The notes: generated from the letters alone by a model not told the origin. A DNA stretch of 64,000 nucleotides from Escherichia coli (GCF_013122565.1 NZ_CP053258.1), one strand, 5' to 3'. Counted from the stretch's first letter, positions 35,575 through 52,962 are shown. Translations and numbers: made by a program.

Positions 35575-36312
35575 ATGCTATATATCTTTCGTCTTATTAT
35601 TACCGTGATTTACAGCATCTTAGTCTGTGTATTCGGCTCCATTTACTGCCTTTTCAGCCCGCGTAACCCGAAACATGTGGCCACCTTTGGGCATATGTTT
35701 GGCCGTCTTGCGCCGCTGTTCGGCCTGAAAGTTGAGTGCCGCAAACCTGCAGACGCTGAAAGCTACGGCAATGCTATCTATATCGCTAACCACCAGAACA
35801 ACTATGACATGGTGACAGCATCGAACATTGTGCAACCGCCGACGGTGACGGTAGGTAAAAAGAGCTTGCTGTGGATCCCCTTCTTCGGGCAGTTGTACTG
35901 GTTAACCGGCAACTTATTGATCGACAGAAACAATCGCACTAAAGCTCACGGCACTATTGCGGAAGTCGTGAATCACTTCAAAAAACGCCGTATTTCCATC
36001 TGGATGTTCCCGGAAGGAACCCGCAGTCGTGGTCGCGGCCTGCTACCGTTCAAAACCGGGGCATTTCACGCGGCAATTGCGGCAGGCGTCCCGATTATTC
36101 CCGTGTGCGTCTCTACAACTTCGAATAAGATTAATCTTAATCGACTGCACAACGGTCTGGTGATTGTCGAAATGCTGCCGCCAGTTGATGTCAGTCAGTA
36201 TGGCAAAGATCAGGTTCGTGAGCTGGCTGCCCATTGTCGTTCGATAATGGAACAAAAAATCGCCGAGCTCGATAAAGAAGTCGCAGAGCGCGAAGCCGCC
36301 GGAAAAGTTTAA
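35575..36312 (+). CDS. plsC: 1-acyl-sn-glycerol-3-phosphate acyltransferase
   Basis: 245-aa ORF; acyltransferase motifs NHQNNYD and FPEGTR. Confidence 0.9.
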   Translation: MLYIFRLIITVIYSILVCVFGSIYCLFSPRNPKHVATFGHMFGRLAPLFGLKVECRKPADAESYGNAIYIANHQNNYDMVTASNIVQPPTVTVGKKSLLWIPFFGQLYWLTGNLLIDRNNRTKAHGTIAEVVNHFKKRRISIWMFPEGTRSRGRGLLPFKTGAFHAAIAAGVPIIPVCVSTTSNKINLNRLHNGLVIVEMLPPVDVSQYGKDQVRELAAHCRSIMEQKIAELDKEVAEREAAGKV

Positions 36313-47036: not shown

Positions 47037-48200
47037 TTAGCGGGCGGCTTCGTATATACGGCGGCTGACATCCAGCGTAATGTCATGATTTTCGCCCAGT
47101 TGGGTCATGCCGTGCTCTTCCAGTTTTTTCAGCAAAGCCGGGATGGAGCTGCCGTCCAGACCGTAGTCGGAGAGGTGGGTCGGCACGCCTAATTGCTCAA
47201 AGAAATTGCGGGTTGCGGCAATCGCGGCGTCAATACGCTCATCGTCGGAACCTTCAGTGATGTTCCAGACGCGTTCAGCATATTGCAGCAGCTTAGCGCG
47301 CTTGGTATCGCGTTTTTCATTCCACAGTGCAGGCAGGATGATAGCCAGTGTTTGCGCGTGATCCAGACCGTGCATCGCAGTCAGTTCGTGGCCCAGCATA
47401 TGCGTTGCCCAGTCCTGCGGTACGCCAGCGCCGATCAAACCGTTCAGCGCCTGAGTCGCCGCCCACATGACGTTGGCGCGCACATCGTAGTTTTCTGGCT
47501 CTTTCAGGGCTTTCGGACCATCTTCGATCAGCGTCAACAAAATGCCTTCTGCGAAACGGTCCTGAATTTTGGCATCAACCGGTTTGGTAACATACTGTTC
47601 CACGGTGTGTACAAAGGCGTCCACTACGCCGTTAGCCACCTGACGCGGCGGCAGGGTGTAGGTATAAACCGGATCGAGCACGGCAAATACGGGCTGAACA
47701 TGGGCAGAATGGAACGCCTGCTTGTCGCCTGTGGTTTTACGGGAGATCACCGCACCGGCGTTGGATTCTGAACCGGTTGCTGGCAGCGTCAGCACACAGC
47801 CCATCGGGATGGCGCTTTTAATCTCTTTACCGCCCGTTTGCAGAATGTGCCACGGATCGATATTTTCCGGATAGTTAGCCGCTGCGGCGATAAATTTGGT
47901 GCCGTCCAGTACAGAACCGCCGCCAACCGCCAGCAGGAAAGTCACTTTTTGTTCGCGAACCAGTTTCACGGCGTTCATCAGCGTTTCATAAGCCGGGTTT
48001 GGCTCAATACCGCCAAATTCCAGCACGTCCATGCCTTTCAGGGCATCCAGAACTTGATCGAGAACGCCGGTTTTTTTCACGCTGCCGCCGCCGTAGGTAA
48101 TCAATACGCGAGCATCGTGAGGAATTTGTTCGCGTAAACCAGCGATTGCGCCTTTACCAAACAGAATGCGGGTTGGGGTGTGCAGATTAAAGTTGTTCAT
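47037..48200 (-). CDS. yqhD: NADPH-dependent aldehyde reductase (iron-containing alcohol dehydrogenase family)
   Basis: ORF 47037-48224; start placed at [17 protein letters not shown] (387 aa). Confidence 0.9.
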
Positions 48201-48336
48201 TACTTGCTCCCTTTGCTGGGTCAATATGAGGGCAGAGAACGATCTGCCTGATGTTTTTCATTGTGGTCGCCAGCGCCGTACCTCTCAATGCTTATTTCTG
48301 CCAATGTCTTGCCTATTTCTCCAGAGTGCTGGAGAA

Positions 48337-49293
48337 ATGCTACAAAATTGCGCACAATCAAATTGCCGCATTCTTCCTAAGAAATTACGCGATATGAAAC
48401 GTGAAGAGATTTGCCGCTTGCTGGCGGATAAAGTTAATAAACTGAAAAATAAAGAAAATAGTTTGTCAGAACTGTTGCCCGATGTGCGTTTGTTGTATGG
48501 CGAGACGCCTTTCGCACGCACACCGGTGATGTACGAGCCTGGCATCATAATTCTCTTTTCCGGACATAAAATCGGTTATATCAATGAACGCGTGTTTCGT
48601 TATGATGCCAATGAATACCTGCTGCTGACGGTGCCGTTGCCGTTTGAGTGCGAAACCTATGCCACGTCAGAGGTGCCGCTGGCAGGGTTGCGTCTCAATG
48701 TCGATATTTTGCAGTTACAGGAACTGTTGATGGACATTGGCGAAGATGAGCATTTCCAGCCGTCGATGGCAGCCAGCGGGATTAACTCCGCCACGTTATC
48801 AGAAGAGATTTTATGCGCGGCGGAGCGGTTACTCGACGTGATGGAGCGACCACTGGATGCGCGTATTCTCGGCAAACAGATCATCCGCGAAATTCTGTAC
48901 TACGTGCTGACCGGACCTTGCGGCGGCGCGTTACTGGCGCTGGTCAGTCGCCAGACTCACTTCAGTCTGATTAGCCGCGTGCTGAAACGGATTGAGAATA
49001 AATACACCGAAAACCTGAGCGTCGAGCAACTGGCGGCAGAAGCCAACATGAGCGTATCGGCGTTCCACCATAATTTTAAGTCTGTCACCAGCACCTCGCC
49101 GTTGCAGTATTTGAAGAATTACCGTCTGCATAAGGCGCGGATGATGATCATCCACGACGGCATGAAGGCCAGCGCAGCAGCGATGCGCGTCGGCTATGAA
49201 AGCGCATCGCAATTTAGCCGTGAGTTTAAACGTTATTTCGGTGTGACGCCGGGAGAAGATGCGGCAAGAATGCGGGCGATGCAGGGGAATTAA
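48337..49293 (+). CDS. yqhC: AraC-family transcriptional regulator YqhC
   Basis: ORF 48166-49293 truncated to an internal Met to give 318 aa; C-terminal AraC HTH; divergent from yqhD. Confidence 0.8.
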
Positions 49294-50131: not shown

Positions 50132-51319
50132 TTATACAATCCGCGCAAAACCGGCGTCCAGATCGGCAATCAGATCGTCGACATCTTCCAGACCAATATG
50201 CAGGCGAATCAAGGTCCCGCTAAAATCGATCTCGCCTTGTGGGCGAATGGCGGCGATATGTTCTGGTTGATTTGCCAGGATCAACGATTCATACCCGCCC
50301 CACGAGTAGGCCATGCTGAATAAACTGAAGTTATCCAGATAGTTCGCCAGCTCTTCATCATTGAGTTTTTTCTTAAGCACAAAGGAAAATAGCCCGCTGC
50401 TGCCTGTAAAGTCTCGTTTCCAGAATTCGTGTCCTTTACTGCCAGGCAGGGCAGGGTGGTTAACTCGCGCAACTTGCGGATGTTCTGCCAGCCATTCGGC
50501 CACTTTCAGACTGCTTTCATGATGTTGACGCAAACGCACACCTAATGTGCGCAGGCCACGGCTGGTTATATAGGCGGTATCGGCATCGACCATCTGGCCC
50601 ATCAGATAGGCATTTTCCCGTAGCTGCTCCCAGCAACGGGCATTGCACACGGCAGTGCCAATCATCGCATCTGAATGCCCAACCAGATATTTGGTGGCGG
50701 CCTGAATAGAAACATCGATGCCAAAATCCAGCGCCTTAAACAGCACACCGGCTGCCCAGGTGTTGTCGATCATAATGATGGCATCCGGCACCACACTGCG
50801 CACGGCGGCAACAATCGCCGGAACGTCGTGGACTTCCATAGTGATGGAACCCGGCGATTCCAGAAACACGATTTTAGTGTTTGGCTGCAGATGCTTAACG
50901 ATATCGGCACCAATCAGCGGATCAAACCACGATGTCGTTACGCCCAGTTTGCTGAGGATTTTGCTACAGAAATCCTGACTCGGTTCATAGGCGGTGTTGG
51001 TCATCAACACATGATCGCCCTGTTCGACAAAAGCAAGAATCGAATTAGCAACCGCTGCCGCCCCGCAGGGAAATAGCGCGCAGCCTGCGCCACCTTCCAG
51101 TTCACACATCGCTTGTTGTAAGGAAAAATGGGTTAACGTTCCGCGCCGTCCATAGAACAACTCGCCATTGGCGCGATTGCGCGTCGCGTGCTTTTTGGCT
51201 TCCATACTCTCAAATACCAGCGAAGAAGCGCGCTGAATCACGCTATTTACCGCGCCGAGAGTGTATTTTTTGCTGCGTCCTGCATTCACCAGTTGAGTAT
51301 CAAGCTTTTTGTCCGCCAT
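50132..51319 (-). CDS. metC: Cystathionine beta-lyase (PLP-dependent)
   Basis: ORF 50132-51454; start placed at [14 protein letters not shown] (395 aa); PLP lysine region. Confidence 0.9.
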
Positions 51320-51337
51320 GTCGGGATTCCTGTTTTT

Positions 51338-51356
51338 ATACGTCTGGATGTCTAAA
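51338..51356 (-). promoter_or_regulatory. Putative tandem MetJ boxes (AGACATCC AGACGTAT on the minus strand) in the metC leader
   Basis: Two 8-bp repeats resembling the AGACGTCT met-box consensus just upstream of the metC ribosome-binding site. Confidence 0.4.
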
Positions 51357-51482
51357 CTAGCATGAATATTCGCGGGCGCATCCTGAAGAATTGGCATAAA
51401 GCAGAAAATTTTCGCAAATGGCGTGCTGGTGACTTTTTTACTGCGTAAACGCAAGGAAAAGAAAGCAAAGGTACGGCAGTAT

Positions 51483-51510
51483 GCAAATAGTAATGAGAAC
51501 GACTATCAAT
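51483..51510 (+). promoter_or_regulatory. Putative Fur box upstream of exbB
   Basis: AATAGTAATGAGAACGAC hexamer-repeat pattern resembling GATAAT-type Fur sites; exbBD is a classic Fur target. Confidence 0.3.
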
Positions 51511-51570
51511 TCGACGTCGTTTTGATATTATTATGCGCAGATTTTGTGACTTGCGTCCTGGAGATACACA

Positions 51571-52305
51571 GTGGGTAATAATTTAATGCAGACGGACCTT
51601 TCCGTCTGGGGTATGTATCAGCACGCCGATATTGTCGTTAAGTGCGTGATGATTGGGCTTATTTTGGCCTCCGTAGTCACCTGGGCAATCTTCTTCAGTA
51701 AGAGCGTAGAGTTCTTCAATCAGAAGCGTCGCCTTAAGCGCGAGCAGCAACTGCTGGCTGAAGCGCGTTCCTTAAACCAGGCCAACGATATCGCCGCTGA
51801 TTTTGGTAGCAAAAGCTTAAGCCTGCATTTGCTCAATGAAGCGCAGAATGAGCTGGAACTGTCAGAAGGCAGCGACGATAACGAAGGTATTAAAGAACGT
51901 ACCAGCTTCCGTCTGGAGCGTCGGGTCGCCGCAGTAGGTCGTCAAATGGGCCGCGGTAACGGCTATCTGGCAACCATCGGCGCGATTTCGCCGTTCGTTG
52001 GTCTGTTTGGTACGGTCTGGGGCATCATGAACAGCTTTATTGGTATCGCGCAAACGCAGACTACTAACCTGGCAGTCGTTGCGCCGGGTATCGCAGAAGC
52101 TCTGTTAGCAACGGCAATCGGCCTCGTGGCAGCGATTCCTGCGGTCGTTATCTATAACGTATTTGCACGCCAGATTGGCGGCTTTAAAGCGATGCTGGGT
52201 GATGTTGCAGCGCAGGTATTGTTGCTGCAAAGCCGTGACCTGGATCTGGAAGCCAGCGCCGCTGCGCATCCGGTTCGTGTCGCACAAAAATTACGCGCAG
52301 GATAA
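51571..52305 (+). CDS. exbB: TonB-system energiser ExbB
   Basis: 244-aa ORF with three transmembrane segments. Confidence 0.95.
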   Translation: MGNNLMQTDLSVWGMYQHADIVVKCVMIGLILASVVTWAIFFSKSVEFFNQKRRLKREQQLLAEARSLNQANDIAADFGSKSLSLHLLNEAQNELELSEGSDDNEGIKERTSFRLERRVAAVGRQMGRGNGYLATIGAISPFVGLFGTVWGIMNSFIGIAQTQTTNLAVVAPGIAEALLATAIGLVAAIPAVVIYNVFARQIGGFKAMLGDVAAQVLLLQSRDLDLEASAAAHPVRVAQKLRAG

Positions 52306-52311
52306 TGCCCG

Positions 52312-52737
52312 ATGGCAATGCATCTTAACGAAAACCTCGATGATAACGGCGAAATGCATGATATCAACGTGACGCCGTTTATCGACGTGATGTTGGTTCT
52401 GCTGATTATCTTTATGGTGGCGGCACCGTTAGCGACGGTAGATGTGAAGGTGAACTTGCCTGCTTCTACCAGCACGCCGCAGCCGCGCCCGGAAAAACCG
52501 GTTTATCTGTCGGTGAAGGCAGACAACTCGATGTTTATCGGTAACGATCCGGTCACCGATGAAACAATGATTACGGCGTTGAATGCGTTAACCGAAGGCA
52601 AGAAAGACACCACCATCTTCTTCCGAGCGGATAAAACCGTCGATTACGAGACGTTGATGAAGGTAATGGATACGCTGCATCAGGCGGGTTACCTGAAGAT
52701 AGGTCTGGTCGGCGAAGAAACCGCCAAAGCGAAGTAA
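52312..52737 (+). CDS. exbD: TonB-system energiser ExbD
   Basis: 141-aa ORF immediately after exbB. Confidence 0.95.
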   Translation: MAMHLNENLDDNGEMHDINVTPFIDVMLVLLIIFMVAAPLATVDVKVNLPASTSTPQPRPEKPVYLSVKADNSMFIGNDPVTDETMITALNALTEGKKDTTIFFRADKTVDYETLMKVMDTLHQAGYLKIGLVGEETAKAK

Positions 52738-52743
52738 AGTAGA

Positions 52744-52962
52744 ATTGCCTGATGCGCTACGCTCATCAGGCCTACAAAATCTATTGCAACATGTTGAATC
52801 TTCGTGCGTTTGTAGGCCGGATAAGGCGTTCACGCCGCATCCGGCATTAGGGGCTCAATGCCTGATGCGCTACGCTCATCAGGCCTACAAAATCTATTGC
52901 AACATGTTGAATCTTCATGCGTTTGTAGGCGGATAAGGCGTTTTCGCCACATCAGGTAAGAG
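52744..52962. repeat. REP/BIME cluster: two tandem ~113-bp units, each with paired REP palindromes
   Basis: Repeated gcctgatgcgctacgctcatcaggcctaca and gtaggccggataaggcgtt...gccgcatccggca motifs. Confidence 0.85.

Follow-up and report, generated by a model that had tools for sequence, protein, structure and literature searches.

The DNA between metC and exbB in the window, the whole 64,000-nucleotide stretch of Escherichia coli DNA analysed here, is almost certainly the known divergent control region of metC and exbBD, composed of a MetJ module and a Fur module; an upstream extension of the metC reading frame is spurious. The MetJ operator, the Fur operator and the correct metC start have already been established on identical DNA of strain K-12. 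The identity to K-12, the matrix score with its statistics, the phylogenetic footprints and the assignment of the MetC N-terminus come from the present analysis; MetJ and Fur binding and the in vivo regulation are taken from published papers.

A 501-base query around the region matched E. coli O157:H7 chromosomes with 100% identity and was found in 5422 of 5426 complete E. coli genomes. Positions 51300-51600 of the window are also 100% identical to K-12 MG1655, so that results published for K-12 are valid here base for base. RefSeq annotation of the identical O157:H7 DNA places the metC start codon at 51319-51317 on the minus strand and the exbB GTG at 51571, which makes 51320-51570 the exact intergenic region (Table 1). 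A sequence-only reading of the window had located a control region between metC on the minus and exbB on the plus strand and had called its pattern consistent with the known regulation of these genes; both statements hold, the latter on identical DNA for MetJ (Augustus & Spicer, 2011) as well as for Fur (Chen et al., 2007; Gao et al., 2023). In the RefSeq annotation of the identical DNA, metC and exbBD are flanked by yghB and yqhC at one end and by yghA at the opposite end; yqhC, too, is over-extended by the mechanical ORF track. Small ORFs within the intergenic region (51 aa on the plus and 44 aa on the minus strand) were rejected as genes, as conservation is block-wise with indels and not codon-like. 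An Rfam scan of positions 50900-52000 at a permissive threshold returned no RNA family.

For comparative footprinting, a species-representative genome collection was scanned with ExbB, which yielded 80 loci ranging from Escherichia to Photorhabdus and Pseudomonas. The divergent metC-exbB arrangement is kept in most Enterobacterales. An alignment of 21 genera of Enterobacteriaceae revealed discrete conserved blocks, separated by spacers that vary freely and carry indels, and these blocks correspond in position to the operators and both extended -10 elements. Among the E. coli strains fetched, the two that diverge most showed 26 and 10 substitutions per 501 bp, and both -10 elements, the Fur cluster and the met boxes were free of them; in the more divergent strain, 12 of the 15 intergenic changes fall in 51363-51425.

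Table 1. Genes, regulatory elements and conserved blocks in and around the metC/exbB intergenic region (window coordinates).
Feature	Position	Strand	Remarks
Divergent metC/exbB intergenic control region	51320-51570		251 bp; RefSeq on identical DNA
metC, cystathionine beta-lyase, 395 aa	50132-51319	-	RefSeq CDS; Pfam Cys_Met_Meta_PP; PDB 1cl1_A
exbB, GTG start, 244 aa	51571-52305	+	RefSeq CDS; Pfam MotA_ExbB
exbD, downstream of exbB	52312-52737	+	RefSeq CDS; Pfam ExbD
metC Shine-Dalgarno AGGAA	51327-51331	-	7 nt before ATG; AGG conserved in 21 genera
exbB Shine-Dalgarno TGGAGA	51559-51564	+	7 nt before GTG; GGAG invariant in 21-genus alignment
MetJ operator, two contiguous met boxes	51338-51353	-	AGACATCC (51353-51346) + AGACGTAT (51345-51338)
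Predicted metC promoter, extended -10 (TGnTAnnnT)	51354-51362	-	TGCTAGTTT; abuts met box 1
Spurious 45-codon in-frame metC extension	51320-51454	-	TTG at 51454-51452; mechanical ORF track
Third conserved (central) block	51433-51460		CTTTTTTACTGCGTAAACGCAAGGAAAAG; core 51437-51458; dyad TGCG-N4-CGCA
Published predicted CpxR box	51455-51469	+	GGAAAagaaaGCAAA; PSSM 9.98, Zhao et al. 2022 Table S4
Fur operator cluster, conserved block	51481-51514		TATGCAAATAGTAATGAGAACGACTATCAATTCG; 34 bp; nearly every column invariant in 21 genera
Fur core, 7-1-7 inverted repeat	51494-51508		TGAGAACGACTATCA; centre 51501, -70 from exbB GTG
Predicted exbB promoter, extended -10	51523-51531	+	TGATATTAT; 29 nt after Fur core start
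Conserved block, met boxes and upstream flank	51337-51362		21-genus alignment
Conserved block, central block	51438-51456		21-genus alignment
Conserved block, Fur cluster	51481-51514		21-genus alignment
Conserved block, exbB extended -10 region	51520-51531		21-genus alignment
Conserved block, inside predicted exbB leader	51539-51548		21-genus alignment
Conserved block, Shine-Dalgarno and exbB coding	51558 onward		21-genus alignment

Operators of metC and exbBD

Positions 51338-51353 are the published MetJ operator of metC. The symmetrised information matrix and the thresholds of Augustus & Spicer (2011; PMC3228920) were applied to the whole 64 kb, an operator being defined as at least two contiguous 8-bp boxes like AGACGTCT, each with at least one-quarter of the consensus score and with a sum of at least 12.58 bits. 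The two boxes upstream of metC, which read ATACGTCTGGATGTCT on the plus strand, scored 8.96 and 9.96 bits, that is 18.92 bits compared with the threshold of 12.58. After dinucleotide shuffling of the intergenic region, none of 5000 sequences reached 18.92 bits (maximum 15.84) and 20 of 5000 reached 12.58 bits. The metC pair is the top MetJ match in the window, where just two sites exceed the thresholds; the other one (13.97 bits, 35693-35708) lies within a 245-aa ORF, and about one such match is expected by chance per 64 kb. The octamer adjoining the metC pair scored below zero, hence the operator consists of two boxes only. MetJ operators are located near a promoter, usually no more than about 75 bp from the start of a methionine-regulon gene. 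The metC boxes lie 18 nt upstream of the ATG and 6 nt upstream of the AGGAA sequence (51331-51327), and adjoin the extended -10 element TGCTAGTTT of a predicted promoter. Tandem met-box-like octamers just upstream of the metC ribosome-binding site had been part of the sequence-only reading, which had set a MetJ weight-matrix scan as the test, and the scan supports them.

For K-12, the metC (b3008) site is listed in Table S1 of Augustus & Spicer (2011, BMC Genomics 12:558; PMC3228920) as the operator AGACATCCAGACGTAT, with the same 16-mer, two boxes, 18.92 bits and a distance of 18 nt from the start. Sequence, position, number of boxes and score are all identical to those found here, and there is no difference between the two operators, both being one locus, here in the genome of an O157:H7 strain. 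In that study, the metC/exbB intergenic DNA was shifted by MetJ in gels, and exbB, which shares the intergenic region with metC, showed no in vivo regulation by MetJ. Met-box pairs with 15-23 bits at 13-22 nt from the ATG were detected in about 27 Enterobacteriaceae loci; in Shimwellia, the boxes are 43 nt from the metC ATG, a start that was extrapolated. The pair is absent in Erwinia, Pantoea, Tatumella, Dickeya, Yersinia, Xenorhabdus, Photorhabdus and Providencia. The occurrence of met boxes in Enterobacteriaceae only agrees with the published observation that metboxes are present at about half of the Enterobacterales metC genes (PMC3228920).

On the other side of the region, positions 51481-51514 are the published Fur operator of exbBD. 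Fur sites were scored here by consensus matches only. The core at 51494-51508 agrees with the 7-1-7 consensus TGATAATnATTATCA in 11 of 14 positions, with 2.3% of shuffles being equal or better, and with the ChIP-exo motif TGAnAATnATTcTCA in 11 of 13 positions, a value attained by 1.2% of shuffles. The classical Fur 19-mer GATAATGATAATCATTATC is matched in 13 of 19 positions at 51489-51507 (p ~0.08 from shuffles), and this poor match characterizes the site as divergent from the textbook consensus. The top GATAAT-like array, GCAAAT AGTAAT GAGAAC GACTAT at 51483-51506, has four hexamers with four of six matches each; its total of 16 out of 24 is matched by 15% of shuffles and is within chance. 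As the Fur pattern is weak by consensus, its reality rests on conservation and on the published experiments.

The Fur core TGA[G/T]AA[C/T]nACTATCA was found upstream of exbB in 68 of the 69 Enterobacterales loci fetched and in none of 13 Pseudomonas loci. In Enterobacterales it is present with or without a divergent metC, in Enterobacteriaceae about 70 nt from the start codon, and the 7-1-7 match rises to 13 of 14 positions in Yersinia, Photorhabdus and Providencia. Chen et al. (2007; NAR 35:6762, PMC2189734) described a Fur site of 19.1 bits at K-12 coordinate 3150076, at -70 from exbB, within a cluster of three sites over 31 bp, which had been overlooked by an earlier model and was confirmed by gel shift with 150 nM Fur; a proposed Fur box of exbD showed no Fur binding. 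The DNA of this K-12 cluster is identical to that of the window, without any sequence difference; the centre of the 7-1-7 core (51501) falls on the -70 coordinate given there, and the conserved block agrees in extent with the 31-bp cluster. Gao et al. (2023; NAR 51:3618, PMC10164565) assigned an iron-replete Fur ChIP-exo peak to exbB. In the tables of this nine-strain study, exbB is listed nine times among the ChIP-exo peaks (of which the MG1655 and W3110 rows were inspected), exbB and exbD are labelled as core Fur regulon, the ortholog table contains the O157 locus tag ECs3890, and metC is absent. Provided that the coordinates refer to NC_000913.2, the MG1655 peak (3150091-3150113) corresponds to window positions 51464-51486 and thus lies at the cluster's left end, where it abuts the core and is not centred on it.

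Of the GATAAT-like array that the sequence-only reading had seen upstream of exbB, the Fur site has stood, being published and conserved, but the array alone fails the chance test (p ~0.15). Matrix scores below threshold had been named as the result that would speak against the reading; for Fur, the scores are borderline by crude consensus, and not so by the published information-theory model with its 19.1 bits. The array had been described without coordinates and may instead have been GATATTATTATG at 51524-51535, a sequence that is more probably the exbB -10 region.

Could the met-box and Fur-box matches be chance resemblances in AT-rich intergenic DNA that have no regulatory role? The scores of the Fur consensus and of the hexamer array, which fall inside the range of shuffled sequences, would allow this, and the threshold-level MetJ pair in the coding ORF illustrates that such matches do arise by chance. 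The MetJ score of the metC boxes, on the other hand, is far beyond the shuffle distribution, the met boxes and the Fur site are both phylogenetically footprinted, and both sites have been bound experimentally on identical DNA. We therefore regard this explanation, whose probability is minimal, as practically disproved by the conservation together with the gel shifts and ChIP-exo data in the literature.

The N-terminus of MetC

The mechanical ORF track gives metC as an ORF at 50132-51454 with a TTG start and 440 aa, 45 codons more than the annotated MetC of 395 aa. A metC gene translated from the TTG at 51454, yielding a protein with a 45-residue N-terminal extension, is very improbable, even though E. 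coli and E. albertii have 61 open codons upstream in this frame, with an in-frame TTG at codon -45. In RefSeq, for both O157 and K-12, and in the curated K-12 record, MetC has 395 aa and starts with MADKK. The same holds for the crystallised E. coli enzyme (PDB 1CL1), which comprises 395 aa from MADKK and whose residues 1-395 align to residues 46-440 of the ORF. The tblastn alignments of MetC begin at residue 1 in more than 50 genera (nearly all loci). Citrobacter, Kluyvera, Pluralibacter, Pseudocitrobacter and others have a stop codon at a distance of 2-11 codons upstream of the metC ATG, and in the genera with an open upstream frame the lengths of the extension are inconsistent. Moreover, the extension stretch exhibits the conservation of regulatory blocks with indels, which is not codon-like. 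The ATG is preceded by the Shine-Dalgarno sequence AGGAA, whereas a pyrimidine run and no purine-rich Shine-Dalgarno sequence precedes the TTG, and an extension of 45 codons would run across the operator, the promoter and the Shine-Dalgarno sequence. The extension is an artefact of ORF calling, in which an open frame and a TTG came together by accident, as the sequence-only reading had thought probable.

Promoters and layout of the two modules

TGnTAnnnT occurs exactly twice in the region, once on each strand and directed at the gene of that strand, compared with 0.38 expected by chance. The TG, T1, A2 and T6 of both extended -10 elements are conserved in 21 genera, and TTTTGnTATnAT at the exbB element is invariant across them. 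In nearly all loci, those of Erwinia and Dickeya among them, the motif TG.TAT.AT keeps the same +29 distance from the first position of the Fur core. TGnTAACGT was found at the matching place upstream of metC in Erwinia, Pantoea and Dickeya, all of which are devoid of met boxes.

A -35/-10 scan of the region detected no sigma-70 promoter and no terminator. Such a scan demands a -35 match and hence misses extended -10 promoters; in view of its result, the promoter assignments are based on the extended -10 motifs and conservation only. The supplements of Kim 2012 have no entry for a metC or exbB transcription start, and phrase searches on the promoters gave nothing new. From the position of the two elements, transcription of metC is predicted to start at about 51346-51350, within met box 1, and that of exbB at about 51537-51539, which would place the implied -35 position of exbB (about 51503-51508) inside the Fur core. 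Both the overlap of the met boxes with the predicted start of metC and that of the Fur core with the exbB -35 would be usual layouts for occlusion; as promoters and transcription starts are predictions, the occlusion mechanism is a prediction too.

Taken in this way, the control region consists of two independent repressor-operator modules, located back to back about 150 bp apart. When S-adenosylmethionine is abundant, two MetJ dimers would bind the boxes cooperatively over the predicted start and block initiation at metC. Under iron-replete conditions, Fe(II)-Fur would bind overlapping sites covering the exbB -35 and repress exbBD, the energy-transducing partners of TonB. Each repressor controls its own gene only. 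In E. coli, metJ/metBL and metE/metR are likewise back-to-back genes with tandem met boxes in between, but there one operator of three to four boxes serves both genes, whereas in the metC/exbB region a minimal operator of two boxes is for metC only and exbB has its own regulator.

The conserved central block

The intergenic region is not fully explained by MetJ and Fur, since it contains a third conserved block. The core that is conserved in this central block reads TTTaCTGcGTaA(a/g)CGCAAgGAAa. Across about 25 genera the block is near-invariant and equals the operators in conservation, with both flanks varying. In every genus that has the block, its distance to the Fur core is exactly 34 bp in spite of changes in the bases between them, and its distance to the met boxes differs between genera. 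The fixed spacing to the Fur core together with the variable spacing to the met boxes suggests that the block belongs to the exbB side, and it is probably a cis-element, phased with the exbB promoter. The block is restricted to Enterobacteriaceae and is present as a single copy in E. coli (5422 genomes), that is, not a dispersed repeat.

To our knowledge, none of the consensus sites of MetR, PurR, CRP, FNR, LexA, PhoP, OmpR, Ada, NagC/Mlc or sigma-54, -E, -32 and -28 fits the block convincingly. A full-text literature search for its sequence retrieved no relevant paper, nor did a search with YeiE as a lead.

Besides MetJ and Fur, a third regulator acting through 51433-51460 might add an input to exbBD and possibly to metC, be it a dyad-binding factor, CpxR or the factor behind the stronger anaerobic repression of exbB. 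We consider the likelihood of this to be somewhat below even. The near-invariance of the block and its fixed 34-bp spacing to the Fur core are in its favour, and it would fit several published observations. An FNR ChIP-chip peak without a recognisable FNR motif was reported at exbB/metC (Grainger et al., 2007). Stronger repression of exbB under anaerobic conditions has also been reported, and anaerobic repression of tonB is described as requiring a second upstream factor (Young & Postle, 1994, as given in a citing paper). With respect to CpxR, the E. coli block GTAAAcgcaaGGAAA matches the consensus GTAAA-N5-GTAAA in 9 of 10 positions, and the CpxR box predicted by Zhao et al. (2022) adjoins the block in a paper that also reports changed metC and exbB mRNA levels under Cpx-activating conditions. 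That box is a PSSM prediction, however, and by qRT-PCR in the same study the metC response was independent of cpxR, being alike with and without it (0.08 vs 0.06). Only the first pentamer of the predicted box (51455-51469) lies in conserved sequence. In a CpxR box, conservation is expected in the pentamers and not in the spacer, but in the central block the invariant CGCA falls in the would-be spacer and the first pentamer drifts to GTAAG and GTGAG, and this speaks against CpxR being the full explanation. A similar motif is lacking upstream of tonB and a second copy is lacking in the E. coli genomes, both of which weaken the case for a third regulator in general. Likewise, nothing points to RNA structure: an RNA hairpin was rejected as a reading of the block, because genera with TGTT in place of TGCG retain CGCA with no compensatory change, and there is no Rfam match.

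That the block with its core TTTaCTGcGTaAaCGCAAgGAAa is the operator of another regulator and provides a third input to ExbBD expression can be put forward only tentatively and is rather unlikely. The E. coli tonB promoter offers a parallel. Like exbB, it is a Fur-repressed part of the Ton energy-transduction system, and a further upstream element may exist at each of them, a second factor at exbB being a hypothesis. The two differ in that the tonB upstream region contains no sequence resembling the central block.

The discovery value of the region is small, as its regulation is textbook knowledge, and the residual novelty is the conserved central block. The outcome shows that real operators are recognisable from sequence alone and that a mechanical ORF track over-extends metC. 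If a regulator does bind the central block, it might explain the reported oxygen-dependent repression of exbB or the FNR ChIP signal. The TonB system gates the uptake of siderophores, vitamin B12, colicins and phages, and control of its energy transduction would gain an input should the central block prove to be a regulator site.

Conserved block and FNR signal between metC and exbB

Between the MetJ and Fur operators lies a third strongly conserved block, CTTTTTTACTGCGTAAACGCAAGGAAAAG, which contains the dyad TGCG-N4-CGCA. The spacing from this block to the Fur core was exactly 34 bp in approximately 25 genera of the Enterobacteriaceae, and the sequences flanking the block were variable. A literature search found no regulator assigned to it.

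In a published ChIP-chip study, an FNR peak was reported at exbB/metC without an identifiable FNR site (Grainger et al., 2007). Inspection of the metC/exbB region for TTGAT-N4-ATCAA revealed no such sequence. The two half-sites found there, ATCAA and TTGAT, are in the wrong order and at the wrong spacing for an FNR site.

Coordinates of features in and around the metC/exbB locus
Feature	Window position	Location or other coordinates
MetJ-matrix match AGACGGCCAAACATAT	35693-35708	within a 245-aa ORF
yqhC (+), mechanical ORF	48166-49293	
FNR ChIP-chip peak	~51382	K-12 NC_000913.2, 3150195
Conserved block CTTTTTTACTGCGTAAACGCAAGGAAAAG	51433-51460	between MetJ and Fur operators
FNR half-site ATCAA	51505-51509	
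Palindrome CGACGTCG, 8 bp	51513-51520	between Fur core and exbB -10 element
FNR half-site TTGAT	51522-51526	
exbB (WP_000527844.1)	51571-52305	
Two tandem repeat copies	52746-52956	between exbD and yghA
gpr pseudogene	~54618 onward	O157:H7 record L001, 6419-6501

Other met-box-like sequences

Apart from the metC operator, AGACGGCCAAACATAT (13.97 bits) was the sole match above the MetJ matrix thresholds in the 64 kb; approximately one match of this kind is expected by chance per 64 kb. The palindrome CGACGTCG has a met-box-like core, GACGTC, yet its MetJ matrix score was below zero, and it was only partially conserved across genera.

Gene calls, repeats and product names around the locus

The mechanical ORF for yqhC comprises 375 aa compared with 299 aa (900 nt) in RefSeq, an upstream over-extension of the same kind as that seen for metC. 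The O157:H7 record matching the window marks gpr, the gene for L-glyceraldehyde 3-phosphate reductase, as a pseudogene with a frameshift. K-12 locus tags skip from b3006 (exbB) to b3008 (metC) in the K-12 record (L086, NC_000913.3, 3151985-3152235), and this jump in the numbering suggests that b3007 was an ORF formerly called in the metC/exbB intergenic region and later withdrawn.

The repeat copies downstream of exbD share 72 nt at 99% identity and 27 nt at 85%, with a spacing of 113, and have palindromic, GC-rich ends. They look like extragenic repeats of the REP/BIME type and give rise to small, spurious ORFs in which the peptide sequence is repeated.

In the genome records examined (L001, L002, L083 and L084), ExbB is named 'tol-pal system-associated acyl-CoA thioesterase' by RefSeq/PGAP. 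Pfam identifies the protein as a MotA/TolQ/ExbB proton channel, and the curated K-12 record names it 'Ton complex subunit ExbB'. The thioesterase designation suits YbgC, and the name given to ExbB therefore appears to be an annotation error that has been propagated.
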